The notes beneath the pieces were generated by a model that did not search any database, was not told the DNA's origin, and worked only from the letters and a program-made list of their open reading frames with translations. From assembly GCA_000092065.1 (NCBI GenBank), contig CP000588.1: 64,000 nucleotides of DNA. The stretch is one strand, 5' to 3'. The DNA comes from Ostreococcus lucimarinus (Eukaryota). The first letter of the stretch is position 1. Each line of letters begins with the position of its first letter. Of the stretch, positions 16,690 through 55,725 are shown piece by piece. The position numbers and the translations under genes were made by a program.

Positions 16690-19600
16690 TCACACGACGA
16701 GATTTGCACGCTCGGCGCGCCCCTCTGGCGTGCGGCGCTCGCGACGCTCACGAGCGAAGTCGAGAATCGAGCGCGATTTAAACACCGCTAAGACGATGAC
16801 GCACACGAAAGCGAATGGAGCCGCGAACGCGACGAACGAACCAAATGGACGCTCAAAATCGCGCACATCGCCGAGGGAAGCGTGTTTACCTTGTACGTCG
16901 TCGACGGCGTCACCACGCGCTTTTTCGTGGTGCTCATCTTTGACTCCGACATCTTTCACGCCGAGCTCTTTCACGCCGAGCGCGACGGTAGCCGCCGCTG
17001 CTCTTCGCACGAGCTCGTGAGCGGTGATTACGTTTTTCTCTGCGGCGCCGAGTCCTGCATCATTCGCTTCAATCAGCCTATCTCGCAGATGCCCTTTACT
17101 TAAACCAATAGGAGCAACGATCTGGTCTTCTGGCACCGAACCAAGAATCGCAGAGCACTGTCCTGCACACGTTCCGAAGACGAAATTTTGCGACGCGAGA
17201 TTCGGGGTGTGGTACTGCACTCGATTTCTCCACTTTCCCGCCTGCACGTCCGTACAGTCGGACGTGAACGCCGGAGACGCAGTCTCTCCGTAGTAGGCTT
17301 GCCACATTTCGTGACCGAAAATGTGTCCCGAATCGTAGACGTGATTGCCTTCGGCGTCCGCCAGCGCGAACCCGTAAGCGACGGAACCAGACCAACCACT
17401 TAGTGTGGCGCCGTAAGTGCATGTATGATAGTAATCATTTCCATCGCGCCCGGTTATCGGAGTCATGGCGATACCTCTGCTGTACGGCCACCTCATGCGG
17501 TTACCAAGAGGTGGTCTCTGTGATACGAGCTTGACTTGCGTCAAATCATCGACTGCCAGCGGGACGTGAAGATAACGCTCGTCTACGCCTTCCTCGGCTT
17601 CTCGCGTAGACGTGTTGTTCAGTGTGTACTCTATTACGCTTTGTGGAATGCACTCCGTACTGACGTAGTAGCACGGCGGAGGAACGACCATGCATGGATC
17701 AGCAGCCGGACAACTCGGATGTTTGTGATCTGAAGCTGAGAGCGCCTCAAGAATGCCTTCCAACTCGCTCGTATCGTTGTCTTGAGGGCAAACCAAGTCA
17801 TCGGAATCGCAGTTCCAGAGCGCGCCGACAGGACCTTGAACGTCGAGTTGCGTTCGAGACCCGGCGCACGTAGCCTTGCAGTTTCTGCCGTATCTGAAAT
17901 GCCATTGAGCTCCATAGGTGCTGAGACTATTGCGATGATACTTCGACAGATACGCCGGCATCGTAATGTCGTCAGCCACATCATCAACAATACTCGCCAA
18001 TGGAACTGGGAGAATGGGAATGTGTGTGTGATTGTTACGGTGCCCATACACCGGAACGACGTATGGGTTAGCGACAAACACGACGAAAGGTTCCATTTCG
18101 AACGATTCGTGCTCGTCGTATTCCGGAACACTCGCGAGCGGCACGAATGGCGCAAAGTGGGGCGGTGGTGGCGGGCTCGGAGGCGGGCTCGGAGGCGGGC
18201 TCGGAGGCGGGCTCGGAGGCGGGCTCGGAGGCGGGCTCGGAGGCGGGCTCGGAGGCGGGCTCGGAGGCGGGCTCGGAGGCGGGCTCGGAGGCGGGCTCGG
18301 AGGCGGGCTCGGAGGCGGGCTCGGCGGGCTCGGAGGAGGGCTCGGAGGAGGGCTCGGAGGAGGGCTCGGAGGAGGGCTCGGAGGAGGGCTCGGAGGAGGG
18401 CTCGGAGGCGGGCTCGGAGGCGGGCTCGGAGGCGGGCTCGGAGGCGGACTCGGTGTTGGCGTCGGCGTCGGCGTCGGCGTCGGTGCGGCAGCCAGGGCGG
18501 CGGCGGCATTAGGTGCCAGCACTGCGTTGTGATATTCGAGATACCTCTCTTCTGCTTCCAAGTTAAAAGTCGCCAAGTCGTCTTGCGCGAGCTGCGCATC
18601 CAAATCAGTCAAGAATGAATAACTATTCGTCGTTTTCCAGGCCTCGATTGTGTCTACAACGTGTTGTTGGTACACTTCATCGGCAGATATATTGACATTT
18701 TGGTTGAACGACCAAACATCTGCAGCCGCAGCTTCTGAATCTAGTGAAAGATCACAGAGGTACGTGTTTATTGTGCACTGCGAAGACTGCCATTCGTCCA
18801 CCTTCGTCGTAATGTAGCGTTCTTTCACTGCAGCGTTCGTACTGGTCACGTCGTCGTTGGATTGCAATCTTGCTTCTGGAGTGGTCACGCTGTACGAGTG
18901 CGTAGACGCCCACGTCGAAACACGAGAACTCTCCGTATTCCAGTAATGGGCGTCGTAGGCCGACTCGAGCGCTGCGTTGTATCCCTCCAGATCGTTGACC
19001 ACGTCACGGATCGGCCAACCCGATGGCGCATACCCAGTCGCGGCGTTTGAAAGCAAGAAATCGTCCAAGGCGGCTTGTTCGTCGATTTGGAGCTCGAGGT
19101 GCTTGTCACCGGAAAGTTGTTCAAATCGATCCATCCATTTCTTCGTCGAAGCGCTGATCGACAAACCTTTGCGGTAAAACTTGCCTAATTTCGACACATC
19201 CCCCGCGCGATAGTAAAGACGGAAAAACTCGAATAGATAGTCTTTAGTATCACTGGCGATATCGGCATCGCTGATCGCATGTCTCGTCAGCCAAGCTTGC
19301 AAATCCCGTTGCACGCGCGCGTTTATCATCAAAAACGCCGCGTAACGCATGTCCATCACGAACGTAGTCGTATCGCTCGGATCACCGTATCCGGAAGCCG
19401 GTCTCAGCACTGATTCAGTCATCCAAGGACACGTGTAAGTGAGTCGAAGACTACCGAAGTAATCTGGGCTGTACGTTTTCCACACCTCGTTCCGATTGCC
19501 GTCGTCATCCGCGCCCGTGATGACGCACGCGTCATAATCGGCGTCTCCAGCGTAATGCTCGCTCACATACGCCGTGAGCGCACTCTGAAACTTGGGCAAG

Positions 19601-20019
19601 TTAAAAGGTTGCATTATTTGCGTGTCGTAGTTCGCGTATCGCGGGTTTTCGCGCATCATGATCCCGGGACATCTATCGAAGCGGTCCGTCACGCCGCGAT
19701 GGCTGTACCTCATGCATCCCGGGTGCGGCACTCTGGGGTCATCCACGTGCGTGTACGCCCCGAGCGTCCCCACCGCGGCGATCGACACCGTCACGCACGC
19801 GAGCGCGACGGCGAGCGCGCGCCCGATCGTCACCACCGCGCGCACATTTCGTCGAGTGTGCGGTCGGGTGTTCCGCGTCGTCGTCATCGTTCTCGGCCGT
19901 GGACGCACATTCGATAGGGTGTTACGCGTCGTCGTCATCGTTCTCGCCTTTCCCGTCTCGCCGGCGACGATCACGCCGGTGCGCGGGAGAGAAGCATCGC
20001 GACGCTGTTTCGATGGCAT
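16690..20019 (-). CDS. large secreted/membrane-anchored proline-rich glycoprotein with an (SPPP)n array (hydroxyproline-rich / extensin-like)
   Basis: 1109-aa ORF. The N-terminus has a signal/anchor ([17 protein letters not shown]). The middle contains [19 protein letters not shown]… of about 100 residues. The C-terminus ends in a hydrophobic anchor ([19 protein letters not shown]). A 30-bp direct repeat at ~19860/19920 duplicates RTMTTTRNT at the N-terminus. Confidence 0.55.
18148..18470. repeat. 12-bp tandem repeat (GGCGGGCTCGGA)n, about 26 copies with GGAGGGCTCGGA variants; encodes the SPPP array on the minus strand
   Basis: The periodicity is directly visible in the sequence. The plus-strand frames of the array produce the G/L/E-rich track ORFs 18032–18532 and 18147–18512, which are artefacts. 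Confidence 0.9.
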
Positions 20020-21192: not shown

Positions 21193-21322
21193 CGGGCGCC
21201 ATCGCGCTCGGATCGGCCGCGCGCGCGCGCGAAAGTGACGCGGGATCGACGCTCGGAGGGACTTTCAGCCGTTGACCTCAATTCGCGTCGCGCGATTCGC
21301 TCGCCCGTCGCGCGCGCGCGCG

Positions 21323-24022
21323 ATGGAGCTGTTTCGGAGCGAGCGAATGTCGCTCGCGCGCGTCATCGTGCCCGAGGAAGCCGCGCGGGACACGATCGAA
21401 CGCGTGGGCGAGCTCGGGGTGATGCAGTTTCAAGATCTGAACTCGGACACGCCGGCGTTTAAGCGCGCGTACTCGACGCAGATACGACGCGCGGACGAAC
21501 TGCTGCGACGGTTGCGGTACTTTCGAGACGAAGCGCGACGAGCGACGATCGCGGTGGCGCGATCGAGACGGAGAAACGCGACGGGACGCGGGAGCGGGGC
21601 GACGACGACGACGACGGACGAACTGGACCACGTCACGGAGGAGCTCGAACGCGATCTCGCGCAAGCGCTGAAGAATTACGAGAGGCTGATGAGGACGCAC
21701 AGCGAGTTGATGGAGCTGCAGTTGGTGCTGGAGAAGGCGGGGGGGATATTTGAGGAGAGTCGAGCGGACGGAGGAGGGCGCGGCGGCGGCGACGTGGATT
21801 TTCGCGGGACGCGGTCGTACGACGACGTCGAGGGGGGGGGCGAAAGCTTGCTGCCTGTCGCGAGTGTCGGCATGGGCGCGGCGACGGAGCGGCGCGGTGA
21901 GATGGGATCGAGGTCGGGGTCGTATTTAGAGATGGCGGAATTGGACGCCGCGGGCTCGAGCGGGCGAAGCGGCGACGGCGCGTCCGCGTCGTCCAACAGC
22001 GCCGCGGGCGCGTCGGCGGTGCGACTCGGATTCATCACTGGAGTTATCCTCACGAATAAGGTGATCTCGTTCGAGCGGATTTTGTTTCGCGCGACGCGAG
22101 GGAACATGTTTTTGAAGCAGTCGCAAATCCTGGGCACCGTCGTCGACCCCACGACGGGCGAAAAGTGCGAAAAGACCGTGTGCGTGGTGTTTTTCGCGGG
22201 TGAGCGAGCGAGAGAGAAAATCATCAAAATCTGTGAGGCGTTCAACGTGAATCGGTATCCGTTCCCTGAGGATTACACACGTCAGCGACAAATGTACGCC
22301 GAGTGCACGGCGCGTCTCGTCGAGTTGCAGTCAACGCTCGACGCTTCCACGCAGCATCGCGACGATGTTTTGCGTAAAGTGGGCGACAGTCTGGAAGATT
22401 GGATTCAAATAGTTCTGCGCGAGAAGGCTATTTATCACACGATGAGCATGTGCTCGGTCGACGTCACACGAAAGGTGCTCGTGGCTCAAGCTTGGATTCC
22501 TGACTACGCGCTGTCCTCCGTGCAGACCGCCTTGACGGATGCGAATCATTCCTCGCTCGCTTCCGTTGGGACGATTTTTCAGCAAATAGAAACCAAGGAA
22601 TCCCCGCCGACGCACTTTCAGACGAACAAAGTCACCTCAGTCTTCCAAGGCATCGTCGACGCGTACGGCGTCGCGAGCTATCGCGAGGTGAATCCCACGG
22701 TGTTCACCATCGTGACTTTCCCATTCCTATTCGCCGTCATGTTCGGTGATTTTGGCCATGGATTTCTCATGCTCTTCGCCGCGCTATATTTGGTGATGAA
22801 CGAAAAGAAGCTCGCGGCGTCGGGACTGAACGAAATCATCCAGATGGCGTTCGACGGTCGATACGCCATCCTACTCATGTCCATTTTTAGTATTTACACT
22901 GGTTTACTCTACAACGAATGTTTCTCTGTACCAATGAATTGGTTCGGTGCGAGTAAGTATGTGTGCGATCCAAATGACCCGACGGCGTCTACGACGTGCG
23001 ATTCGGCGTATAAGACCGGCCTGGTGAATAACGGCGACGGCGCGTACGCCTTTGGCGTCGACCCCATCTGGCACGGTTCGCGTTCGGAATTGCCGTTTTT
23101 GAACTCGCTGAAGATGAAAATGTCTATTTTGATGGGTGTGACGCAGATGATGCTCGGAATCTTCATGTCATTCCTAAATCAGGTGTACACAAACGACAAG
23201 CTCTCGATGTATTGCGAGTTTTTCCCGCAAGTCATCTTCCTCGGCGCGCTCTTCGGATACCTGTCGTTGCTGATCCTCATCAAGTGGTGCACGCCTGGTT
23301 CGACTGCCGATTTGTATCACGTTATGATATACATGTTCCTTTCCCCGGGCAACGTCGATTGCGCCGGCGAAGGCGAAAACGGCGGTCCCGGTTGCCCCGA
23401 AAACGTCTTGTTCCCAGGGCAAGCGGGCTTTCAAAATTTTTTGTTGTTTCTCGCCTTTGTGGCGGTGCCGGTGATGCTGTTTCCGAAACCGTACATTTTG
23501 AAGAAGCGACACGAAGCGTCCCGAGGCGGGGTTCGGCGAGGCGGCGTGCGATACGCGCGGCTTGATGCAGAAGATGACGACGACGAGGCGTTTTTGCAAG
23601 CGTCAGATGCGGAGAACAGCTCACCGTCGGCTGAAGAGGAAGAAGAATTTGATTTCGGCGAAATCATGGTGCATCAAGGGATCCATACCATTGAATTCGT
23701 TCTCGGCGCTGTGTCAAATACCGCGTCTTATCTTCGTCTTTGGGCGCTGTCACTAGCGCATGCGCAACTCTCAGCCGTGTTTTGGGATCGCGTCTTCATG
23801 GGCGCCGTGGCGAGCGGAAACGTCGTCGCCATCGTGATGGGTTTCGCCGTGTGGGCGTTCGCCACGATTGGGGTGCTCATGCTCATGGAATCTCTGTCCG
23901 CGTTTTTACACGCGTTGCGCTTGCACTGGGTCGAGTTCAACAACAAGTTCTTCAAAGGAGCCGGCTATGCCTTCGTCCCGTTCACCTTCGTCGGTCTCAG
24001 CGACAAGTCCGACGACGCGTGA
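21323..24022 (+). CDS. VHA-a: V-type proton ATPase 116-kDa subunit a
   Basis: The ORF 21272–24022 has ATG MELFRSERMSLARVIVPEE at ~21323. It shows the V0 subunit-a N-terminal signature and the C-terminal multi-TM region (…LRLWALSLAHAQLS…). Confidence 0.9.
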   Translation: MELFRSERMSLARVIVPEEAARDTIERVGELGVMQFQDLNSDTPAFKRAYSTQIRRADELLRRLRYFRDEARRATIAVARSRRRNATGRGSGATTTTTDELDHVTEELERDLAQALKNYERLMRTHSELMELQLVLEKAGGIFEESRADGGGRGGGDVDFRGTRSYDDVEGGGESLLPVASVGMGAATERRGEMGSRSGSYLEMAELDAAGSSGRSGDGASASSNSAAGASAVRLGFITGVILTNKVISFERILFRATRGNMFLKQSQILGTVVDPTTGEKCEKTVCVVFFAGERAREKIIKICEAFNVNRYPFPEDYTRQRQMYAECTARLVELQSTLDASTQHRDDVLRKVGDSLEDWIQIVLREKAIYHTMSMCSVDVTRKVLVAQAWIPDYALSSVQTALTDANHSSLASVGTIFQQIETKESPPTHFQTNKVTSVFQGIVDAYGVASYREVNPTVFTIVTFPFLFAVMFGDFGHGFLMLFAALYLVMNEKKLAASGLNEIIQMAFDGRYAILLMSIFSIYTGLLYNECFSVPMNWFGASKYVCDPNDPTASTTCDSAYKTGLVNNGDGAYAFGVDPIWHGSRSELPFLNSLKMKMSILMGVTQMMLGIFMSFLNQVYTNDKLSMYCEFFPQVIFLGALFGYLSLLILIKWCTPGSTADLYHVMIYMFLSPGNVDCAGEGENGGPGCPENVLFPGQAGFQNFLLFLAFVAVPVMLFPKPYILKKRHEASRGGVRRGGVRYARLDAEDDDDEAFLQASDAENSSPSAEEEEEFDFGEIMVHQGIHTIEFVLGAVSNTASYLRLWALSLAHAQLSAVFWDRVFMGAVASGNVVAIVMGFAVWAFATIGVLMLMESLSAFLHALRLHWVEFNNKFFKGAGYAFVPFTFVGLSDKSDDA

Positions 24023-24113
24023 ACAGAACGGCAAATTAGCATCATGATATGATACGAATTGATTGTGTAATGATAAACGTTACAACATTTAGCAAAATGA
24101 TAGTGTATACAGT

Positions 24114-26309
24114 TCACGACGACGAGCGCGTTCGTCTGAGCCACGGTCTTGAGTCGCCCGTTTGCGTTTCGACGGTGTGCGTTCGGCGCGCGTCAAAAAG
24201 CGAGTCGCGATTTGTGAGGTCTATGAAGACCTCCACAGCCTGAAGACCAATGAATGCAAGAGCGCCTCGTCTTGATGTTTCGCTTTGGTCGAGCGCTGAT
24301 AATCCGACCGCGATGCCGACGACGGCGCACAGGGAACTCCACGCGTGCTGTACACCGCGAATTTTTCGGCGGCGGCGATTGTCCGCGCAAAGCGCCGCGA
24401 GTAAGTTTTTGAAAGTATCCCAGTATAGATATTGACACCTTGACACGCGTATTTGCCGCGCACCTTGTGATACGCGCGCGACGAAATGTGCCAGTCGCAC
24501 GTGATCGTTTTCGCATTGGCGATTGAGACGCGAGGCGAGGCGATTGAAATCAACGCTCCATGCGATGAAGACGGTAAAGGCGAAAGCCACCGCCGCGTCC
24601 GCCGCGCTCGTCATCGTGAAGCCCGCGGCAAGTGCGACGTAGATTACTCGCGCGAACGCGTGTGCGGTCCTCGAATACTGCAGCGAATGCGCGACAATGC
24701 GTTGCATCGCAATGGATGCCACAAACGTTCCGATGGCAGCGTATAAGAGCGCGTTGGAAGGATTCCACATTCGTCGCTTGCCGTCGAGCCATCTTTCAAA
24801 AGCGTGCAGTGATATAGCTGGAGTGATACCGACGCATGCAAAGATACTGACGATCAACGAAACTGATTGAAAGTTCCAACCTTTCATGGACGCGGCAACG
24901 TTCTTCGTTGGGGCAGCGAGAAATTCTCGCGGCGACGGATGAATAACCCTTGACTTGTCAATCGGCGCAGTCTGTCGCCGCGACGACGACGACGACAGCG
25001 CTCGATGAATTGTGTGCGCGTCGCAACCCTCCAGCATAGAGCTCCATTTACCGATGAACACGACGCTGTTGCCTTCGGTGATGACGATACGATGGCACAA
25101 AGGAAGTACGGCGATATCAGTCGTGGTGAACACGCAGGACCGACGCCGGTTTGTTAGGCGATTCATTGCTCGCAATCGCGCGCGTTCATCGTATATTTCA
25201 TAGAATGGGTCTTGTGCCAGCATGATACGAGCGTGCGCGCACCTTGCACGCTCCAAACCGATTTCACACGCACCACCATCGCTCGTGCTACACGCGATGA
25301 CGTCGTCCGCGGTTTCCTTTGGTCGCTTGCGAAGCGCACATTCCAGGTAGCGATCTGATGAGCATAACGCCGCTTCTAACGACTCTATCAGGCGCGATCG
25401 TTTCAGAGCATCTACGCGTGATGAAGCAGATCCCAACACCAGCGCGTTGACACGCCTATCGACGGGTTCGGGCACGCGCCATTCCTTGCTCGGCGAAAGC
25501 AGTACGTCAACTTCGTCCGCATGTTCGACGCCTCGAATAAGTCGATTAAATAAGTCGTATCGTCCATCGCCGACGATGGCGACGAGCTCTCCGCCGTTTT
25601 CAACGAGCGCCGATGTTGACACAGAGGGCCCTCTGTGAGAGCTCCGTTCGTTGTCGGTCACGAGAGCTACAAATTCGACGCGTCGTGCCGAGTCAATTTT
25701 CGCTCGCCGAGCGCTCACGAGCGCTCGAACGCATGCTCGAGTCAAAATCAGCGCTGAAAATGCATCTGCTTCGTCGATGTATCGTACATACGCGGAATGT
25801 GCGAAGCAAGCGGTAATCAACACCGCGTAAGCGACCGCATCCACGTAGTTCTGTCTCGATCCAGAAACTGCCAAAGCAGCCTCGCTTTGCGCAAACAGTC
25901 GCCATTCATGCGCAATTCGTTCCGCGCACAGTGAACGGTTTGATGCCAGCAATAAAGTATCATAAACTGCTCGCTCGTATTTCTCCGTCACGCGCAAACG
26001 CGTTAATCGCGAAACTGTGTCGACGACGCCGAGCGCGGCGAAAGATGGCAAAATCCAACCGAGCTCGCCGCGAGAGACCAATCGGCGAACGCCGAACGCA
26101 CAAAACACCGTCGAGGTGAATATCAAGATATTGAGAAAACGACACGCAAAAATCAATCCATCGACGTGCGAGAATCTCGATGCGTTTTCGTGTTTCGTAT
26201 CCCCAATGTGAAAGAGTTCCTCGCGGCTCCAACGCGCGAGAAGACCAAACCATCGCGACGTCGGTGCGGGCGCAAACGCGCTCGCGGCGTGACGCGCGCG
26301 TGAAAGCAT
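24114..26309 (-). CDS. ABC-transporter-like membrane protein with a degenerate nucleotide-binding domain
   Basis: The 786-aa track ORF 24114–26474 probably starts at an internal Met (~26309). It has hydrophobic TM-like segments. An ABC NBD-like region has the correct spacing but degenerate catalytic motifs: Walker A GELVAIVGDGRYDL, signature SDGGACEIGLERARCAHA, Walker B IMLAQDPFYEIYDE, and H-loop SCVFTTTDIAV. A further multi-TM segment follows (LQYSRTAHAFARVIYVALAAG…). Confidence 0.45.
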   Translation of the reverse strand: MLSRARHAASAFAPAPTSRWFGLLARWSREELFHIGDTKHENASRFSHVDGLIFACRFLNILIFTSTVFCAFGVRRLVSRGELGWILPSFAALGVVDTVSRLTRLRVTEKYERAVYDTLLLASNRSLCAERIAHEWRLFAQSEAALAVSGSRQNYVDAVAYAVLITACFAHSAYVRYIDEADAFSALILTRACVRALVSARRAKIDSARRVEFVALVTDNERSSHRGPSVSTSALVENGGELVAIVGDGRYDLFNRLIRGVEHADEVDVLLSPSKEWRVPEPVDRRVNALVLGSASSRVDALKRSRLIESLEAALCSSDRYLECALRKRPKETADDVIACSTSDGGACEIGLERARCAHARIMLAQDPFYEIYDERARLRAMNRLTNRRRSCVFTTTDIAVLPLCHRIVITEGNSVVFIGKWSSMLEGCDAHTIHRALSSSSSRRQTAPIDKSRVIHPSPREFLAAPTKNVAASMKGWNFQSVSLIVSIFACVGITPAISLHAFERWLDGKRRMWNPSNALLYAAIGTFVASIAMQRIVAHSLQYSRTAHAFARVIYVALAAGFTMTSAADAAVAFAFTVFIAWSVDFNRLASRLNRQCENDHVRLAHFVARVSQGARQIRVSRCQYLYWDTFKNLLAALCADNRRRRKIRGVQHAWSSLCAVVGIAVGLSALDQSETSRRGALAFIGLQAVEVFIDLTNRDSLFDARRTHTVETQTGDSRPWLRRTRSSS

Positions 26310-26439
26310 GTGTCTTATGCGGGTTTTTGGAACTACACGCGAAATCGAAGTCGTAGAATGTTGCGAGTTGCGTTCTGCAGCTGCAGCTGCCTCGGGACGC
26401 GCGAAACGACAACGAATACAACATGTTACAAGATAGATA

Positions 26440-28149
26440 CTACAGCGGCCAGTCTGGAAGTGGTCCGGGTACATATTCGCAATGAAATCCGTACGGTACG
26501 CGCATTGGAATATGCACGACGCACTGCGTCGTGAGTTCGTCGCCCGAGGCGTCTAAAATTAATAACTCTGCTCGAGGCTCTTCACCGTCGACGTCGAGGT
26601 GTGTCAACACGAGCAAATAACCGTCGTCTTCGCGCGCGGCATCTTTCGAAGGAACGAAAATAATGTCACCACACGTGACACCTTCACCTAATTCGTATCG
26701 AGTCGTCACTCCTGACTGTAGGTCGTGCTTGAGTACGGCGTCGAACAGAGGAATGTCCATGCGCGACTTTGGTTCGGTGCCCAATTTGTACGCCACCGAG
26801 TACGCGAAGCGGTACTTTAAGCCAGTGTACTTGCGGTTAATACACGGAAAGTCGGAAGTCTGTTCGCATAGGCGCTTGCTCGATATTATCGCGTTAGCGT
26901 CGGTGTCGATTTGCCATCTCCACAACGCCGCAACGTCGCGACCGGCGTTCACTGGATTCTTCGCCGGCGTTGAACGCGGCACGTTCGACTCTTGGCACAT
27001 CCCCAACGCGTTCGTTTCGTCGGCTTTGCACACATCCAACGTCAGAATATTTCCTTCTTCGTACGCGTTCACGACGTGATACGCAAAGCACGTCTCGCCA
27101 GTGTCAATCCAAAACGGCCCTTCCTCACCTCTTCGTGGGAGATATCCGATACGCAACGTGCATTCTCTTTCAAAGCTAAACGGCAGTCCGCCTTCGATGA
27201 CGCGCGGCAAGTTGAAGATCAACGGCCCATCGATCAGCACCGTCTTTGTCGGCGTGATGGCGACGTCGTGTTGCATCGAGGGTCGAGGCACTTTAAATTG
27301 CCGCCGGTGCGTGCGTTTCCCCGTCTCGCCGTCGATCACGCCAACCGTGATCGTCGTCTGCCCATCCTGCTCGCCGCTCAGCGCCACGAGATTGTACCCG
27401 ATGTAAATTAACTCGTCCGTCATCGGGCACGTCTTCGAATGCGCGGTGAAATTGTCCAGCCAATAATCCATCGTGCCAAACGTCTGATTGAAATCGCACA
27501 GCCCTTTCGTGCGCAGCGTCGGCTCTAACGCGATCTCGTACGGCGAACCGCTCTCGTACGTCGCTAACAATCGCCCCGCATGATGCGTCAATCCGTTACT
27601 ACTCGTATTCTTGGACTGAATGACGAAGAACGCCGAATCCGGCTGCCGAACGTCCAAGGTCATCTTTTCCAACAACCTCGGCAGCAAGTACCGCCAAATC
27701 GGATTTATATCCCGGAGCCCCGTGTACAGCGCCGCGTTCGCCTTTTCTTCTCGCTCGAAACCGCGCGTGCGCACGTACCGCCTTGTATACTCCGCTCGTT
27801 CGCCCTCGCCGCGCAAACGAATCGCGTGCACCATGCCGTCGCCGTCGAACCAGTGATACCGATTCGTCCCGAGCGCCGGTCGAAATCGCGCGTTCGGGCC
27901 GTTCCGCAGGTACAACCCGTCCAAATCGTCCGGCAACCGCCCGCGCGCGACGACGCACGCGACGGGCGTCTCGAGCTCGCCCTCCACCGGCGCGAAGTTC
28001 CCAGATAACGCCGGGTTCGTCGTCGCGTCGTCGTCGAGCCACCGCGGCGCGCGCGAGATCGCGCGCGCGCGCGTCCCGGACGCATCGCTCGACCGCTCGC
28101 GCCGCGCGTCGACGCCCGCGGCGGCGCGCGAGACGCACAGCGCGCGCAT
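26440..28149 (-). CDS. carotenoid cleavage dioxygenase (CCD/NCED, RPE65 family)
   Basis: FAPVEGELETP, LDGLYLRNGPNARF, HWFDGDGMVHA and the iron-binding His signature match this family. The track ORF 26440–28743 carries a Ser-rich low-complexity N-terminal extension. The likely start is MRALCVSRAAAG at ~28149, giving about 570 aa. Confidence 0.8.
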   Translation of the reverse strand: MRALCVSRAAAGVDARRERSSDASGTRARAISRAPRWLDDDATTNPALSGNFAPVEGELETPVACVVARGRLPDDLDGLYLRNGPNARFRPALGTNRYHWFDGDGMVHAIRLRGEGERAEYTRRYVRTRGFEREEKANAALYTGLRDINPIWRYLLPRLLEKMTLDVRQPDSAFFVIQSKNTSSNGLTHHAGRLLATYESGSPYEIALEPTLRTKGLCDFNQTFGTMDYWLDNFTAHSKTCPMTDELIYIGYNLVALSGEQDGQTTITVGVIDGETGKRTHRRQFKVPRPSMQHDVAITPTKTVLIDGPLIFNLPRVIEGGLPFSFERECTLRIGYLPRRGEEGPFWIDTGETCFAYHVVNAYEEGNILTLDVCKADETNALGMCQESNVPRSTPAKNPVNAGRDVAALWRWQIDTDANAIISSKRLCEQTSDFPCINRKYTGLKYRFAYSVAYKLGTEPKSRMDIPLFDAVLKHDLQSGVTTRYELGEGVTCGDIIFVPSKDAAREDDGYLLVLTHLDVDGEEPRAELLILDASGDELTTQCVVHIPMRVPYGFHCEYVPGPLPDWPL

Positions 28150-28198
28150 CGCGAACGCGAGGACGAATTCGACGCTCGACGCGTCACTCACTGACGCG

Positions 28199-29051
28199 AT
28201 GACGACCGCGCACCGACCGACGTGGGCGCCGGCGAAGGGAAAGGAACACCAAGGCGGCGCGCGCCTGTTCGGACCGAGCGCCAAGCACAGCAAACTCGAC
28301 GCGAATGGATTCATGACGCTGAAGACGAGACACGAATCGCAATCGGGCGCGGACGCGCTGCTCGCGCGGGATTTGCGCGCTGAGCTCGAGGAAAAGGAAC
28401 GACGGGCGAAAGGAAAGGGCGCGATCGCGGGCGCGGACGTGAAGGAGACGATCGCGGCGCTGGGGAGCGGGGCGAGCGATGATGGTGGACGGTTTCGAAC
28501 GCGAGCGGAGGACGCGGACGACGACGCGAGCGCGAGCGGGAGCGACGACGAGAGCGATTCGGGGAGCGATGATGAGAGCGATGGTGCGTGTGCGATGTTT
28601 TCGTCTCTCGCGAACGATGGCGCGGCGCGCGATGCGATGCGAGACGCGAGACGCGAGACGCGAGACGCGAGACCCGACGACGCGAGGCGACGGCTGACTA
28701 ACCCTACCACGCTCTCGATTCGCAGACGACGACACGGCCGCACTCTTGGCCGAGCTCGAGCGCATCAAGAGCGAACGCGCGGAAGAAGCGCGTTTGAAAG
28801 CCGAGGCCGAGGCGTCGGAGGCTTTCGAGCGACAAAAAGACGAATTAGCGACGGGGAACCCGTTATTGGACCTCGCGACTGGCGGCGCCGGCGCGAGCGC
28901 GGGCGGCGACTTTAGGACGAAACGGCGCTGGGACGACGACGTCGTGTTCCGCAACCAAGCGCGCGACGAGCCCAAGGTTGGGAAGCGTTTCATCAACGAC
29001 ACCATTCGAAGCGATTTCCACAAGAGGTTTTTGAACAAGTACATCAAGTAG
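28199..29051 (+). CDS. CWC15: spliceosome-associated protein CWC15; join(28199..28583,28726..29051)
   Basis: The N-terminus [27 protein letters not shown] matches CWC15 MTTAARPT(F/W)EPA…. The C-terminal ORF is in another frame (…[14 protein letters not shown]…[17 protein letters not shown]). A 142-bp intron (GTGCGT donor, CTGAC branch, CGCAG acceptor) splices the two to give …SDDESD|[20 protein letters not shown], which matches human [23 protein letters not shown]. The intron contains (GCGAGAC)5. Confidence 0.85.
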
Positions 29052-37604: not shown

Positions 37605-39428
37605 CTATTCCACGAGCGAATCCGCCGCCGCCGAAGCCAACTTCTCTTCGAACGCGCTTCGTCGCGCCTCGTTCCTCGCGGCCTCGGCGTTCTTGGGGCT
37701 ACTCCAACGCATTCTGTTTTCTTGATCCGCCGCGCGCTTTTCTTCCAAACGTTGTCTCTCCAACTTCAACTTATCTTGGATGTCCATGCCTTCCTTGCGC
37801 AGACGTTGCACGCGCAGCACGTGAGCGTTTTCGTACCACTGATTAAACGCTTGCGAGAGTTCAATGTTCTGCCATCGCAAGTACACCTTGGTCATTATGC
37901 GCTGACGAACGTAACGTTCTTGCAACAACTCAACCCACGCCGCGAGAACTCGGCGTTTCAAGTTCTTCAAGTACGCGTCGTTCGCGGAGTGATCCACCCA
38001 CATCGACAGCAGCCCTTGCGCTTCGGCTAAGCGCGTCTTGATCGCGACGATCTTTTCTTGGCACTGCGCACGCTCTTGCTGGCTCTCAAACTGCCCTCGC
38101 TCGAGCTCTTCTTGAAGCTCGAGTAACTGCTCTGTGTGCTCGTCGATGTTGCGTATCTTCATCGCTTCCATAAAGGTCTGCAACTGCGCCTTAGTCTTCT
38201 CCACGCGCCTCACCATGGCTTTTTCCACCGGCGCGGCGTGCTCGGCAAAGTTCGTGCTCGCGATATGATTCAGTTGAGATCCAACCTTGGGGTGCTTTTG
38301 GACCGGCGCATCTGGATCCTCGTCCTTGTCTCGGATTGTCACGCAAATCCCGCCGCCGAGGCACGGACGGAAGACGACATTGTCGCGCGCCCACTGCCAA
38401 AGCGTCGTCGGATTGAATTCCCTGACCTCGTCGTCGTCGCTCTCGGCAATGTGATACTTCTCGCCGATCTTTTTCAACACGTGCCCGATCGCACCAAGGC
38501 CTGCGCTGAAGAGCAACGTCCACGCGACCTCCTGACCCGTTTGGTTGATCGAAGTAGACTCGCGACGCGGCTTGGCCCTGTCCGCCTTGAGCTTGGGCTT
38601 CGCCGCGACGGCCTTGTTCGTCTCCACTTTTTTAGGCTTATCGGTCGACTCCTTCTCGCGCGCTATCGCATCCTTCTTGTCCTGCTTCGCCTTATCCTGC
38701 TTCGCCTTCTCTTTCGCCGCGTCCGCCTTCGCCTTATCCTTGGCAGCCGTCGCGTTGGGCGTCTTTTTCGGTTGCCGCTTATCCTTCGCCGCCTCGCTCG
38801 GCTTCTTGGCGCCCGCTCGCGACTTGAAATTTTCGAATCTCGCCCCAAAATTCTCCGCCGCTTCGTCCGTGGTTTTAGCCACTACCGACATCATCTTCTT
38901 CCTCCAAGCGCTCAGCTTGTCGCGAGATTTTCCGACGAGTTCGCCCGCGAGCGCCGCCTTCTCGCCCTTCGCCGCCACTCCGAACTCCTCCACCCTCGCC
39001 CGTAACTCTGCTTGCAACTCTTTACTCCGCTGTTCCAGCACGGGATAACTTTTCTCGTACAGTTTCCCACTAAAACTCGTCGTCGTCGTCGTCGTCGTCG
39101 TCGTTTTCTCGCCTCCGCGCTTCCCGCCTCCCCGCGCGTCGTTCGCCGACGCCGCGGCGTTCGTCGACGCCGATCGCCCCTTCTTCGCCGTCTTCGCCGT
39201 CTTCTCCGTCTTCGCCTTCAGCGGCACGTCCAGCACCATCCCCGAGATCAACCCTTTCGCCGACGCGTGCGGGTTCAGCAGCAGGATCACCTCCGCGCGC
39301 GTCCCCGTGCGCTTGGCGAACGCGCTCAGCGTTTCGTTTTTACGAACGACGACGCTCTCGAACGCGTCCGCGTTCGCGCGTCGTCGATCGCGCCGTCCGT
39401 CGCGATTCCGCGGCGTCGGCGTCGACAT
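37605..39428 (-). CDS. LysM-domain-like N-terminus + K-rich region + long coiled-coil protein
   Basis: The internal ATG at ~39428 gives MSTPTPRNRDG…. The LysM-like segment is VVVRKNETLSAFAKRTGTRAEVILLLNP. A poly-T/K-rich linker is followed by a C-terminal coiled coil of about 250 aa. The upstream part of the track ORF is Arg-rich and probably non-coding. Confidence 0.45.
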   Translation of the reverse strand: MSTPTPRNRDGRRDRRRANADAFESVVVRKNETLSAFAKRTGTRAEVILLLNPHASAKGLISGMVLDVPLKAKTEKTAKTAKKGRSASTNAAASANDARGGGKRGGEKTTTTTTTTTSFSGKLYEKSYPVLEQRSKELQAELRARVEEFGVAAKGEKAALAGELVGKSRDKLSAWRKKMMSVVAKTTDEAAENFGARFENFKSRAGAKKPSEAAKDKRQPKKTPNATAAKDKAKADAAKEKAKQDKAKQDKKDAIAREKESTDKPKKVETNKAVAAKPKLKADRAKPRRESTSINQTGQEVAWTLLFSAGLGAIGHVLKKIGEKYHIAESDDDEVREFNPTTLWQWARDNVVFRPCLGGGICVTIRDKDEDPDAPVQKHPKVGSQLNHIASTNFAEHAAPVEKAMVRRVEKTKAQLQTFMEAMKIRNIDEHTEQLLELQEELERGQFESQQERAQCQEKIVAIKTRLAEAQGLLSMWVDHSANDAYLKNLKRRVLAAWVELLQERYVRQRIMTKVYLRWQNIELSQAFNQWYENAHVLRVQRLRKEGMDIQDKLKLERQRLEEKRAADQENRMRWSSPKNAEAARNEARRSAFEEKLASAAADSLVE

Positions 39429-39663
39429 GATGGCGCACCGGTCGCGCGGTTCGTCGCGCGTCTGTGCCGCACGCGCGCGAGTGCGATCGCGCGACGCCGC
39501 ATCGATCGCATTCGCAATCGCATTCGCATTCGACGATTTTTTTTTCGCGGATGTCGTGCGGTGTGCGTCCCGAGACGGGTTTTCGTACGTGGTCGCGGCG
39601 CGTCGTGGACGCGCCCCATCGCGCGTCGCGTCGCGCGCCGTCTTTTCCGCGCGCGCACGAACG

Positions 39664-40542
39664 ATGGCGCCGACGAAAGGTGCGCGCGCGACGGGATGCG
39701 ACGCGACGATTCTTCTCGGATCGCGCGCGCGCGAGCGAGCGTCGCGCGACGTCGCGAACGACGCGCGGCGCCGCGCGCGACGACGACGGAAAGGGCTTTG
39801 GACTGACGGATCGCGCACGACGTCGCGTCGCGAGCAGACGAAAAGGTGAACAAGGCGAGCAAGGCGGCGAAGTTCGTGAAGAAGGGCGCCAAGGGCAAGC
39901 TTCTGAAGAAGCGATTCTCCGCGACGTTCCACAGGTACGCGCACGCGAGCCGCACGAAAGACGAATGATGCGTTCGACGCCCCGAGCGCGCCTTCGTGCG
40001 ACGATGAGACTGACGGTGCGCGACGTTCCGACCGTGAATAGGCCGCGCACTTTGAAGCATGAGCGTAAGCCGGCGTACCCGCGCGTTTCCGTGCCGTCCA
40101 AGTGCAAGCTCGACCGCTGGCAGGTGCGTACGACGACCGACGCGCGCGACGCTGGGATGGGCTTTAGGGTTTTCCGTCGAGCGCGACGTCGAGCGAGAAC
40201 TCAACGGCCTCGCGACGCACGACGAATCGATTGAACCGCGATAGCGAACGCGAAGACTGACGACGATGGTTCTGTCGACCGTGATTTTCTCCGCAGATCT
40301 TGAAGCACCCGCTCGCGAACGAAAACGCGTTGGCGAAGATTGAGTCCAACAACACGCTCGTCTTCGTCGTCGACGCTCGCGCGAACAAGAGGCAAATCAA
40401 GGAAGCGATCAAGCGCATGTACGACATCGAGTGCTTGAAGGTGAACACGCTCATCCGCCCGAACGGCGACAAGAAGGCGTACTGCCGCCTTACGGATGAC
40501 TACGACGCCGTCGACGTCGCCAACAGGATCGGCGTCATCTAG
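39664..40542 (+). CDS. RPL23A: 60S ribosomal protein L23a (uL23); join(39664..39679,39838..39934,40042..40123,40297..40542)
   Basis: Four exons reconstruct MAPTK|[32 protein letters not shown]|[28 protein letters not shown]|[26 protein letters not shown]…DVANRIGVI. This is collinear with eukaryotic L23a. The introns are 158, 107 and 173 bp, with GTGCGC, GTACGC and GTGCGT donors, CTGAC branch points, and CAG, TAG and CAG acceptors. The track shows only the last exon, 40300–40542, with a TTG start. Confidence 0.85.
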
Positions 40543-52409: not shown

Positions 52410-54629
52410 TTAACGAAACGTCGGCGCCTGCGTAGAGGTCGCCGCTTCGAACACTATTCTCGGCGCAAGCTCTTTGAATGGATCGCTCTCGCGTTCGCGC
52501 AACAGATACTGTATACCGCCTTCAACTTCACCGTATACTCGCTCGTAAATCGCCTTGACGCGCTCTTCGTCATCCAAATCCGCTCCACTCACGTCAATAG
52601 GCGCCATGAAACGAAAGTAGAAGCGCTCAGGGGCTTTGGGTACGACGACAGGCTGGATGAATAACTCCTCTTCTCCCGCGTCCGCGGTGACGCGAGTGTC
52701 GACGGCGCGCGCCTTCGGAACGCTTTGCGAGCGTTTACGGACGGAATCGCCCACGATAGGGTTATTCATCAAGTCGTTGGCGTCGGCGACGATGTCGATG
52801 GAGTCCTCGGCGCCGATCGCCGCGAACGGGACGATTATCGCGTCGTGCTTGATTGCCATGCGAATGAACTCTGGCTTGGAAGGCCAAAAGAGTTTGTACT
52901 TTTCGTTTTTTCGTTTGAACGCTTCGCGAACGCCACCCGGAAAGAGCAACACGGCCTCGCCTTGTTTTAGTAGGCGAAACAACGCGAAGCCACTGACGGG
53001 CACGGCGCCGAAAGACGTGAATGATGACCCGCCGCCGACAATATTCATCGCGCGCCGCGGGGGCTTCGGCTCTCGACGCGGCAGTAACGGTTCCACGGGC
53101 GTGTTCTTCACAGCGTCACGAAGCGTATCTTCGAACGAGCGCGGTGCGTCTTCGCCGCCGAATCCATCGCCACCGCCTTCGCGCGACACCACAGGATGCG
53201 CCAAGCCGCGAAGGCAGACGTCGTATTCACGCAAGAATTCATCTACTAGAAATCCGAGATCCGGCGCCATCGTTTGGTGGTTCCCAACTAGCAAGATCGG
53301 TCGCGAACCACGTTGGCGTATTGGTACCGCGCTGAGACCGCGCACAATTTTCCCATCCGGTCGCGTGCTAAAAAACACCGGTGACGTCAGCGCTCGCAAA
53401 CCTGCGAGACTTTCGCGAGCGCGTTCGATGTCCGCCGGCGACGGTGGATCAAACTTTGCGTCACGCGTCATCACCGGCGCATCTGCACGCTTTGGAACGA
53501 ACCCATTTCGACGCGCGATGGTCATTACATTGACCCCCGGCTCCTGAAGTGCCGCGTGCGACGCACCTTTCAATACCTCGACTTTGGCGCGGGGCAAAAA
53601 CTTCCTGAGACGTTCGCTCTCGGCCAAACTCGGTATCAGATTATCGTTCTCACTTGCGATGACGAGCGTGGGCACGTCAATCGCTGTCAGCTTGGCGTAA
53701 TCATCGCTGTTCAAGTATTCACATCCCATGCGAAGGACTTTATCCAATCGATGTGCGAGCGTCTCGCGCGGGATGATTTCGGCCAGCGCGCCAAGCGCCG
53801 GTAGCAATCCGGCGAGCTCTTCCACCCCCGCCGCGATGGTTGTCAACGGATCGTCCGACACCGCGGACGACATGACTTTATCCATCATACCGCGTGCCAT
53901 GCGTACGGGATCGATCAGCACCGGCGTCAGCGCGTACGGCACGGCGCCCCACAATTCGCTCGGGACGTTCGGCAGCAACGGGCCGAGCGCCGGCCACGCG
54001 CTTCGATCGAACGAACTCGCGGGATTGACCAAAATCAAGCGCGTGATCAAATCTGGACGCTCACTTGCGACGCACAAAGACAGCATACCACCCATCGACT
54101 CTCCGATGAGATAGACGTCCTCGTTCTCACCGTTCGCGCGCGCCGCCGCGACGTGCGTGTCCAAGTAAGCCGTCGTCGCTTTCACTAAATCGAAAACGTC
54201 ACCACGATCGCCCGCGGGCACGTTCAGCGCGATGAGATTGAATTCATCGGCGATGTACTCAAACTGCGACGCCGCGCTGAATCCAGTGCCGTCTAATCCC
54301 GGCAAGTACACCGCTAACGGCGCGTCGCCGCGTCTCGCGCCGCCGCGCGTCACCAACGGACTGAACATCCTCGGCGGTCCATCGGCGCCGCGCAGGATCT
54401 CTCGCATCGTCACCCTTCGCGCGTCGGCGTCATCGCGCGCGTCTCCACGCCCCATGGACGACGCCAGACGCATGAACACATCGCTCGACGACGACGATGT
54501 CGACGACGATGTCGATGTCGATGTCGACGCGCGCGTCGTCGTCTTCGCGCGCGTCGACGTCTGGCTCGTCGCGCGCGCGCGCGTCGCGCGCGACGGTGGT
54601 GATGCCACCCCACGCATCGCGCTCGCCAT
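52410..54629 (-). CDS. phytyl-ester-synthase-like bifunctional protein: alpha/beta-hydrolase (esterase/lipase) domain + DGAT-type acyltransferase domain
   Basis: The internal ATG at ~54629 (MASAMRGVASPPS…) is followed by a Ser/Thr-rich transit-like region. The hydrolase domain has LAVYLPGLDGTG and the nucleophile elbow GESMGG. The acyltransferase part has PILLVGNHQ, LLFPGGVREA and IVPFAAIGAED. The architecture matches plant PES1/PES2. Confidence 0.7.
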   Translation of the reverse strand: MASAMRGVASPPSRATRARATSQTSTRAKTTTRASTSTSTSSSTSSSSSDVFMRLASSMGRGDARDDADARRVTMREILRGADGPPRMFSPLVTRGGARRGDAPLAVYLPGLDGTGFSAASQFEYIADEFNLIALNVPAGDRGDVFDLVKATTAYLDTHVAAARANGENEDVYLIGESMGGMLSLCVASERPDLITRLILVNPASSFDRSAWPALGPLLPNVPSELWGAVPYALTPVLIDPVRMARGMMDKVMSSAVSDDPLTTIAAGVEELAGLLPALGALAEIIPRETLAHRLDKVLRMGCEYLNSDDYAKLTAIDVPTLVIASENDNLIPSLAESERLRKFLPRAKVEVLKGASHAALQEPGVNVMTIARRNGFVPKRADAPVMTRDAKFDPPSPADIERARESLAGLRALTSPVFFSTRPDGKIVRGLSAVPIRQRGSRPILLVGNHQTMAPDLGFLVDEFLREYDVCLRGLAHPVVSREGGGDGFGGEDAPRSFEDTLRDAVKNTPVEPLLPRREPKPPRRAMNIVGGGSSFTSFGAVPVSGFALFRLLKQGEAVLLFPGGVREAFKRKNEKYKLFWPSKPEFIRMAIKHDAIIVPFAAIGAEDSIDIVADANDLMNNPIVGDSVRKRSQSVPKARAVDTRVTADAGEEELFIQPVVVPKAPERFYFRFMAPIDVSGADLDDEERVKAIYERVYGEVEGGIQYLLRERESDPFKELAPRIVFEAATSTQAPTFR

Positions 54630-54774
54630 CGTCGCCTCGCGCGTCGTCGCGCGCCTTCGAGTCGCCGTCGAGTTGTGGCGCGGCGTCGACGTCACGCCGC
54701 GGCCATCGCGATGGCGCTCGCGTCGTCCGTCGCGCGCGGCGGCACAGCGACGCGACGTGGGCGGCGTTCGATCG

Positions 54775-55725
54775 ATGTCGTCGAACGCGACGCGCGCCCT
54801 GCGCGGCACCGCGCGCGCGCGAACGGCGAACGCGCCGCGTCGACGCGCGTCGCGGCGGAGCGCGCGCGCGCCCGTCGCCGTCGCGGCGTCGCTTCGAGAC
54901 GCGAAAGTCGTCGTCGTCGGGGCGAACGGGAAGACTGGCAAGCGATGCGTGGAATATTTACGCGCCAACACCGAGGCGCGAGAGATCGTGGCGTGCACGA
55001 GAAGCGGGACGTACGACGGCGGGGCGTCGGACGAGCGCGTGCGCGGCGCCGAGGCAAACGTGGCCACGGCGAGCGTGGCGGAGCTGAGCAACGCGTTCTC
55101 GGGCGCGAAGGCGGTCGTGTTCGCGGCGTCGCAGTCGCAGAATGGAGGCGATGCATCGCGCGTCGATCGGGACGGTGTCATCACGTGCGCGCGCGCGTGC
55201 TTGCGCGCGGGCGTGGAAAGGTTCGTCATCGTCTCCTCGGGCGCGGTGTCAAAGCCGGCGTCGCCCGTGTACATCTTCCTCAACTTATTCGGCGGCATCA
55301 TGAGGAATAAGATTTTGGGCGAAGACGCCGTGCGCGCGCTTTATTTCGACCGGCCGGGGCAGTTTTACACCGTCGTGCGCCCGGGAGGTCTTTCGGAAGA
55401 CCCCGCGCGCGGCGTCGGCGCGCTCGAGCTCAACCAAGGCGACGAAATCTCCGGGCGCATCTCTCGCGAAGACGTCGCGGCGATTTGCATCGAGTCCATC
55501 ACTCGCGATGATGCAGCGAACGCGACGTTTGAATGTTACAACTCGGACGCGGCGAAGCCGCTCGGTGAGGTTGGATTGAGTAACATGATGAAGGCGACGT
55601 CTGCGGACGGCGACGTCGAGAAGACGGGAAAAGAACGACGCGGCGCGACGTGGGATGAAATCTTTGCCGATTTAGCCGCTGACGTCCCGGGGGCAAAGCA
55701 ACAAGGCGAGGGTTTCACGTTGTAA
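54775..55725 (+). CDS. NmrA-like / atypical SDR NAD(P)-binding Rossmann-fold protein
   Basis: ATG is at 54775 (MSSNATRAL…). A transit-like region precedes VVVVGANGKTGKRCVEY (GxxGxxG), followed by …VIVSSGAV…. The gene is divergent from the PES-like gene, about 145 bp apart. Confidence 0.6.
   Translation: MSSNATRALRGTARARTANAPRRRASRRSARAPVAVAASLRDAKVVVVGANGKTGKRCVEYLRANTEAREIVACTRSGTYDGGASDERVRGAEANVATASVAELSNAFSGAKAVVFAASQSQNGGDASRVDRDGVITCARACLRAGVERFVIVSSGAVSKPASPVYIFLNLFGGIMRNKILGEDAVRALYFDRPGQFYTVVRPGGLSEDPARGVGALELNQGDEISGRISREDVAAICIESITRDDAANATFECYNSDAAKPLGEVGLSNMMKATSADGDVEKTGKERRGATWDEIFADLAADVPGAKQQGEGFTL

Follow-up and report, generated by a model that had tools for sequence, protein, structure and literature searches.

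ABC transporters are defined by ATP-driven dimerisation of their nucleotide-binding domains (NBDs). In the ABCC proteins (MRP1/ABCC1, plant ABCC13/MRP5, SUR1 and CFTR) NBD1 is itself a catalytically weak site, with Asp replacing the catalytic Glu; NBD1 of CFTR and SUR binds ATP through an intact Walker A and is accompanied by a second, competent NBD. Heterodimeric exporters with one degenerate site (TM287/288, TmrAB, BmrCD and Pdr5-type) to our knowledge always keep one consensus site, and their degenerate site still binds ATP. The known 'degenerate' ABC proteins (CFTR, SUR, TM287/288 and Pdr5) all retain, as far as we know, both ATP binding and one working site. SbmA/BacA (SLiPT) are membrane proteins related to ABC transmembrane domains (TMDs) that have no ATPase and are driven by the proton gradient (PMC8442886, PMC13316013). 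The gene described here, called X, is a minus-strand open reading frame (ORF) of 786 amino acids (aa) plus stop at 24114-26474 (stop codon 24114-24116) in a 64,000-nucleotide stretch of Ostreococcus lucimarinus DNA (contig CP000588.1), referred to below as the window. It is long and intact, as initially annotated, and its product is identical to a 786-aa protein held in public collections (P0001). At a probability of roughly 0.6, X is a lineage-specific, ATP-independent 'pseudo-ABC' protein of Ostreococcus-type picoalgae, of ABCC-like descent, and is favoured as a non-pumping scaffold or regulatory subunit, its mechanism being the less sure part.

X resembles the ABCC transporters in that its central domain aligns best with ABCC NBD1 and has the same short Walker A to Q-loop spacing, and in that its TMD-NBD-TMD order corresponds to the first three quarters of an ABCC protein. 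It differs from them in lacking NBD2 and TMD0, in having an N-terminal TMD of four helices rather than six, in having a P-loop that is deleted and not merely non-hydrolytic, and in carrying neither a signature motif nor a Pfam match to PF00005 or PF00664. The initial annotation had likened X to CFTR/SUR-type degeneracy. For ancestry the likeness is apt (ABCC NBD1 and ABCC structures were the best matches, and the spacing agrees); for the extent of decay it is an understatement, as the predicted X protein has no Walker A Lys/Ser, no ATP-binding P-loop and no second NBD, whereas the decay in CFTR and SUR is much milder. The heterodimeric exporters with a degenerate site are like X in that their catalytic residues are substituted in a functional protein, and they are among its fold matches; unlike them, X is predicted to form no ATP site. 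SbmA/BacA are similar in that an ABC-like membrane domain can work without ATP. They differ in being bacterial single-TMD homodimers without any NBD, whereas X retains a conserved dead one, and no sequence relationship to X was detected (no Pfam match at E<=10); the fold match of X is to type IV ABCC/ABCB exporters.

The central domain and its catalytic motifs

The sequence of human MRP1 NBD1 was verified against PDB 8vt4_A (643-869), and 120 PF00005-annotated relatives were gathered and aligned as an ABCC NBD1 profile. Aligned to this profile with hhalign, the X central region scored 39.8 (P 4.4e-5) over 179 colinear columns, which begin at the strand leading into Walker A ('GELVAIVG' opposite 'GALVAVVG') and end with the C-terminal strands and helix ('RIVITEGNSVVFIGKWSSML'). 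Control scores were 15.4 for the reversed target and 14.3 and 12.2 for the X membrane domains against the ABCC NBD1 profile. Column-shuffled targets (200) gave a mean of 14.3 (standard deviation 2.7, maximum 25.9), which places the real score at z ~9.4. The aligned span, residues 293-483 (25026-25598, minus strand), is treated below as the degenerate ABC NBD relic, an assignment also supported by the ratio of nonsynonymous to synonymous substitution rates (dN/dS) and by column conservation. Its putative homology to ABC NBDs is detectable only at profile-profile sensitivity.

The X family profile was also aligned with hhalign to single verified NBDs. MRP1 NBD1 matched best (P 7e-5, 178 columns), followed by the NBD of Sav1866 (P 2.6e-3), AtABCB19 NBD2 (P 5e-3), AtABCB19 NBD1 (P 1.8e-2) and MRP1 NBD2 (P 2.3e-2). 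A shortened segment between Walker A and the Q-loop is characteristic of ABCC NBD1. Measured between the first glycine of Walker A and the conserved Asn that follows the Q-loop, the distance is 41 residues in X, 47 in MRP1 NBD1 and 60 in both MRP1 NBD2 and Sav1866, and the spacing in X is thus of the short ABCC-NBD1 type. Judged from these alignments, the putative NBD of X is closest to ABCC NBD1. When the full-length AlphaFold model of X was compared with the PDB by Foldseek, the top matches were hABCC1 (E 4e-6), SUR1, ABCC3 and P-gp, all at probability 1.0, and consisted only of full-length ABCC and ABCB transporters. With a model of the isolated central domain all of the top 50 matches were ABC NBDs, but weak ones (E 6e-3 to 3e-2, TM ~0.25). 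The predicted order of secondary-structure elements fits an NBD, in a region where the predicted local distance difference test (pLDDT) is below 50. A fragment corresponding to X residues 569-786 carries the IMG name 'ABC-type transport system involved in cytochrome bd biosynthesis, fused ATPase/permease'.

Motif states were read across 14 orthologues. The Walker A remnant VAIVGDG (residues 298-304, 25563-25583, minus strand, as are all motifs below) has a 3-residue deletion relative to GxxGxGK[ST] and is followed by no Lys or Ser/Thr; in the alignment to ABCC NBD1, GQVGCGKSS stands opposite G---DGRYD (GDGRYD, residues 302-307, 25554-25571). The G(D/P)G loop is present in 14/14 orthologues and K[ST] in 0/14, and the residues after the loop are variable. 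The Q-loop region is kept as EW.(I/V/L)PE(P/L/T)...N...G.A, with the residue that matches the Gln ambiguous. At the signature, the initial annotation had paired LSGGQ with SDGGA (residues 398-402, 25269-25283). Loss of the signature was borne out, and the alignment places TSDGG, one residue off, opposite LSGGQ; SDGGA is a coincidence of one species, the position being occupied in orthologues by unrelated residues (ASGF, ETTY, FLST, MTIH, GARY and NQTL). Downstream of this unconserved position, the remnant of the helix that follows the signature (ACEIGLERAR, residues 402-411, 25242-25271) is nearly invariant as AC.IG.ERAR.

The Walker B remnant AQDP (residues 420-423, 25206-25217) aligned opposite D-D/E-P as Q-D-P. 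Across the family the Asp position is Q/N/E/A/D and the Glu position D/S/H/E, with D-E in P0075 only, and the next Pro is invariant. In the H-loop remnant FTTTD (residues 449-453, 25116-25130), T451-T452 stand opposite the T-H of canonical NBDs; the His position is therefore T452, and is T/C/N across the family. The four quoted strings (GDGRYD, SDGGA, AQDP and FTTTD) were all found in place, their order agrees with that of NBD motifs in the hhalign alignment, and the substitution of every catalytic residue is real and family-wide. None of the 14 orthologues is canonical; canonical motifs in them would have implied an assembly or annotation error in the window. Judged by sequence, none of the residue classes that ATP binding and hydrolysis require is left in the X protein.

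Membrane domains, conservation and selection

Full-length X was modelled by AlphaFold2 with a 12-sequence alignment, and the membrane helices at residues 101-270 and 535-755 were predicted at a pLDDT of 70-90. Hydropathy peaks were found at residues 101-134, 210-231, 532-647 and 707-731. The N-terminal membrane domain (residues 101-270, 25665-26174, minus strand) is predicted to contain four long helices (101-135, 138-176, 184-230 and 235-270). A poorly conserved linker (residues 484-534, 24873-25025, minus strand; pLDDT <50) separates the relic from the C-terminal membrane domain (residues 535-755, 24210-24872, minus strand), for which six helices are predicted (535-567, 574-597, 602-620, 624-670, 681-727 and 733-755). 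Two of the six (624-670 and 681-727) are 47 residues each and keep long cytoplasmic extensions around a coupling-loop-like segment (671-680); helices of 47 residues are typical of type IV ABC exporters. Two others (574-597 and 602-620) are short, and the first coupling loop, equivalent to intracellular loop 1 (ICL1), is reduced in the predicted model to a 4-residue turn.

The layout is thus TMD (4 helices), NBD relic, TMD (6 helices), with no NBD2. In the predicted model a bundle of long transmembrane (TM) helices reaches into the cytosol and superposes on solved type IV exporters. The model does not show six helices per TMD or two coupling loops, since the N-terminal domain has four helices and the first coupling loop of the second domain is absent. 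Hydrophobic regions on both sides of the NBD had been noted as an unusual domain order; the hydropathy peaks and the predicted helices agree with that observation, and the order can be accounted for by a full-length transporter that has lost NBD2 and retains TMD1-NBD1-TMD2. The reverse, NBD-TMD order of ABCG/ABCA-type proteins was considered and excluded by the 47-residue helices of the C-terminal TMD and by fold matches of type IV, not type V. X should not be filed as an ABC ATPase or an ABCC member, as two NBDs, Walker A, the signature, the Walker B Glu and the H-loop His are all missing.

Selection was estimated as dN/dS by the Nei-Gojobori method, with X of the window compared to its closest relative, P0003 (94% identity; DNA from L005, a short contig of a close relative that carries X). 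The ratio was 0.22 overall, 0.24 in each membrane domain, 0.10 in the central domain and ~0.9 in the linker (484-534). Column conservation followed the same regions: the relic is the best-conserved part of X (mean pairwise identity 0.44; 30/203 columns invariant, 15%); in the membrane domains identity is 0.32-0.36 and 5-7% of the columns are invariant, and the linker has a mean pairwise identity of 0.19 and zero invariant columns. X is a real gene kept by purifying selection, which constrains no part of it more than the dead NBD; selection for a non-hydrolytic function, argued at first from the intact reading frame, is thereby supported. Conservation within the relic is concentrated on the core strands, on the helix that follows the signature and on the neighbourhood of the Q-loop, which in canonical exporters forms the groove for the TMD coupling helix. 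This pattern fits a domain retained for its fold and interfaces, not for chemistry.

X evolves far faster than its syntenic neighbours. When window positions 21272-28743 were compared with four loci of other lineages (L001, L002, L004 and L006), X was 31-43% identical, RPE65 69-78% and V-ATPase subunit a 74-84%; for L001 the values were 39%, 78% and 84%, respectively.

Within the membrane domains, the best-conserved residues are charged and aromatic clusters at predicted hairpin turns on the membrane face opposite the NBD relic. These are RRLVSRGE at 130-137 (~26064-26087), H226/Y232/E235/D237 in 226-237 (~25764-25799), ERWLDGKRR at 560-568 (~24771-24797) and RRG at 735-737 (~24264-24272). In ABC exporters the membrane face opposite the NBD is usually poorly conserved. 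The protein ends in RRTRSSS (residues 780-786, 24117-24137, minus strand), a tail conserved across the family. Tails with the pattern RR-x-(R/S)-S-x(2-3)-COOH stand at the same place in L001, L002, L004, L006 and L007, with R780, R781 and S784 invariant (RRTRSSS, RRISSSFL, RRARSFA, RRISSWT and RRASSTI). The RRxxS tail looks like a candidate basophilic-kinase site, C-terminal 14-3-3 site or di-arginine trafficking signal.

Descent, probable role and competing explanations

In the most economical history, the ancestor of X would have been a full-length ABCC-like transporter of the type IV exporter fold, with the order TMD1-NBD1-TMD2-NBD2. NBD2, the catalytically competent domain in ABCC proteins, would have been lost, the N-terminal TMD cut down to four helices by the loss of two, and the first cytoplasmic loop of TMD2 lost as well. 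The NBD1-like domain would have given up ATP binding and hydrolysis, with its P-loop 3 residues shorter and without Lys/Ser, its signature gone, and its Walker B Asp/Glu and H-loop His freed from constraint. X would then work without ATP. The relic would most likely survive as a folded cytosolic module, docked on the coupling loop of the C-terminal TMD and serving as a structural or regulatory interaction surface. On this view X would be less a pump than a regulatory or scaffold subunit of the SUR-like kind, with candidate sites of interaction or regulation in its RRxxS tail and in the conserved charged loops across the membrane from the relic. A non-pumping scaffold is preferred because the TM helices evolve fast, because the conserved TMD residues lie at hairpin turns opposite the NBD, and because the RR-x-x-S tail is invariant.

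Several results weigh against the pseudo-ABC reading. Pfam hmmscan of the X ORF and all 12 first-round homologues gave no ABC_tran or ABC_membrane match at E<=10 and only sub-threshold noise, and neither phmmer with the single sequence nor hmmsearch with the family profile returned anything relevant from all PDB sequences. The hhalign probability of the ABCC NBD1 match was just 69%. In the full-length model the pLDDT is below 50 across the NBD region, and residues 274-534 are not confident; the isolated central domain (14 sequences) was modelled at a pLDDT of 48.8. The putative RecA-like/ABC fold of the relic is accordingly read from a low-confidence model. For the membrane domains, hhalign against Sav1866/TmrA/TM288 was not significant (P 0.29), with the best local alignment at the expected TM4-ICL2 position, and no internal repeat was detectable when TMD1 was aligned to TMD2 with hhalign; homology of the TMDs is therefore argued from structure comparison. 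The scaffold or regulator role, the docking on the coupling loop and regulation through the tail are inferred.

The empty Pfam and PDB searches reflect divergence, not absence of homology. The initial annotation had been ready to give up the ABC fold if a structural or hidden Markov model (HMM) search found no ABC-NBD homology. The Pfam and PDB HMM searches indeed found none; the hhalign match (at the P and z values above) and the comparison of the full-length model with known structures reverse the conclusion that would follow from them literally. The AlphaFold model it had proposed as a check gave a mixed answer, with low pLDDT in the relic, full-length or isolated, and Foldseek matches of the isolated domain that were all ABC NBDs but weak, which agrees with the ABC fold without proving it independently.

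With clearly lower probability, X may share the ancestry set out above and still be a transporter or channel, that is, an ATP-independent facilitator, secondary carrier or pore in which the relic serves as plug or gate. The type IV exporter-like membrane architecture is kept and confidently predicted, CFTR uses the fold as a channel, the proton-driven SbmA is structurally related to ABC TMDs (PMC8442886, PMC13316013), and conserved charged residues (R130/R131, E137, H226, E235, D237, E560, R561, K566, R567 and R735/R736) could line an entrance. Against such a role, the TM helices are the fastest-evolving structured part of the protein, which is unusual for a specific translocation pathway, and the conserved TMD residues lie at the hairpin turns and not within the helices. 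One TMD has only four helices, the ICL1 equivalent of the other is a 4-residue turn, and X has no Pfam sequence match to the SbmA/BacA families.

It is improbable that X resembles ABC motifs by coincidence and is a lineage-specific helical membrane protein of other descent, with a soluble domain likewise unrelated. The empty Pfam and PDB sequence searches, the non-significant TMD profile comparison and the low-confidence model of the NBD region would all suit this explanation. It does not account for a profile-profile score ~9 standard deviations above shuffles with colinearity over the full length, for 50 top matches of the isolated-domain model that are all ABC NBDs, or for the ABC-type name given independently by IMG to a fragment of the C-terminal domain.

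Very improbable, too, is an X central domain that binds or hydrolyses nucleotide through an unconventional site (e.g., the invariant G-D-G loop), which would make X an atypical active ABC pump, possibly a homodimer. In its favour are strong purifying selection on the domain and the complete or near invariance of the G(D/P)G loop, the ERAR helix, the Pro that follows Walker B and the T450-T451 pair. A Walker A Lys-Ser/Thr, however, is found in no orthologue, the loop falls short by three residues, the Asp and Glu positions of Walker B are free to vary, the signature is unconserved, the H-loop His is T/C/N, and the polypeptide has no second NBD with which to form an ATP sandwich.

For the favoured pseudo-ABC reading, we raise tentatively a wider claim: X may be the first membrane protein of ABC-exporter origin to be described whose nucleotide binding is wholly abolished (a single NBD with a deleted P-loop) and whose dead NBD is nonetheless the part under most selection. 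In marine picoalgae this 'pseudo-ATPase' ABC protein could have been repurposed as an ATP-independent regulatory subunit, receptor or channel, controlled perhaps through the RRxxS tail and the charged loops opposite the relic across the membrane.

Gene limits, orthologues and the surrounding locus

The first ATG of the 786-aa ORF sits within the 3' end of a same-strand RPE65-family ORF (window 26440-26474), so that X residues 1-55 overlap the end of this upstream gene (26440-28743, stop at 26440). The JGI call for the X protein (P0013) is 731 aa and begins at M56, and every orthologue starts at or after M56 (window 26309). The 55-residue extension is present in prokaryote-style gene calls (ENA and Logan entries) and absent from JGI calls. 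Because codons 1-55 overlap the RPE65 3' end and the JGI calls and orthologues begin at or after M56, the real start is most likely M56 (MLSR...) at 26309, which would give a coding sequence of 731 aa at 24114-26309 on the minus strand.

At the other end, the stop of X at 24114 is 91 nucleotides from the end of the convergent V-ATPase gene (24022), leaving no room for an NBD2 exon, and the protein ends 31 residues past its final TM helix with the conserved tail. The suspicion that the gene model is incomplete was not borne out: the C-terminus is conserved, the V-ATPase gene lies 91 nucleotides beyond the stop, and the neighbours are equally close in orthologous loci. A missing upstream or downstream exon is ruled out by the lack of intergenic room and by the conservation of both ends. 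Any fault in the model lies rather in an ORF that runs too far at its 5' end.

A word-indexed search returned 12 X homologues at 35-95% identity, none with a Pfam domain. HMMER, run exhaustively with the family profile over 1.84 billion cluster representatives, returned 11 proteins, all of the X family and including the distant P0075 and P0076; at HMMER sensitivity this search gave no bridge to canonical ABC proteins. The sole named orthologue is O. tauri Q012P8 / XP_003080964.1, an 'unnamed product'. A search of the literature for the X family and its O. tauri accessions, covering those accessions, Ostreococcus ABC inventories and 'TMD-NBD-TMD' proteins, found no publication.

Synteny was examined in six loci of other lineages (L001, L002/L003, L004, L005, L006 and L007). 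X adjoins an opposite-strand V-ATPase-a gene, or is separated from it by one TLC-family gene, in L001, L002/L003, L004 and L007; in the same loci V-ATPase-a is followed by a proteasome subunit gene, and in L001, L002 and L007 then by TIC20 and SNF2. RPE65 lies immediately upstream of X in L001 and L004, and in L006 the upstream neighbour of X shares 71% identity with the RPE65 of the window. Wherever a locus reaches that far, RPE65 is upstream of X, except in L007. This synteny, conserved in five other lineages, identifies the X relatives as orthologues and leaves no room for more exons at either end. It is hardly credible that X is a pseudogene in decay or a product of faulty annotation or assembly (e.g., a canonical gene with a frameshift, or a model from which an NBD2 exon is missing): its fast evolution relative to RPE65 and V-ATPase in the same pair of loci and an internal deletion in one assembly variant (P0002) could be read that way, against which stand intact ORFs with the same ends and conserved synteny in at least 7 Ostreococcus-like lineages, a dN/dS of 0.22, the conserved RRxxS tail, a 3' neighbour 91 nucleotides away in the window or overlapping the 3' end of X in other loci, and the same degenerate motifs in every orthologue.

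The gene found between X and V-ATPase in three lineages encodes a TLC-domain (TRAM_LAG1_CLN8) protein and overlaps the 3' end of X (L002 3211-4005, L004 9964-10794 and L007 10333-11133). It is absent from this position in the window (24023-24113) and in L001, where the gap is only ~90-100 nucleotides. The window as a whole is eukaryotic and intron-poor, with a GC content of ~0.60, and its genes include a kinesin, a SET/PHD protein, an SNF2 helicase, a Na/H exchanger, V-ATPase subunit a and an RPE65-type oxygenase. Two further long ORFs, at 16690-20019 (minus strand, 1109 aa) and 37605-39944 (minus strand, 779 aa), had no Pfam match at E<=1e-5. An ORF of 963 aa at 52410-55301 (minus strand) has an alpha/beta-hydrolase domain (~305-588) and a partial diacylglycerol acyltransferase (DAGAT) match (779-836), and may encode a hydrolase-acyltransferase fusion.

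The X family is probably a lineage-restricted pseudo-ABC protein, and its confinement to a narrow algal lineage limits its practical impact. The present analysis gives a first annotation to a family of orphan proteins, O. tauri Q012P8 among them, from picophytoplankton of ecological importance; O. tauri itself is genetically tractable. X is a natural experiment on the ABC scaffold without nucleotide, and bears on the tasks other than hydrolysis that an NBD can serve, such as docking, gating or partner binding.

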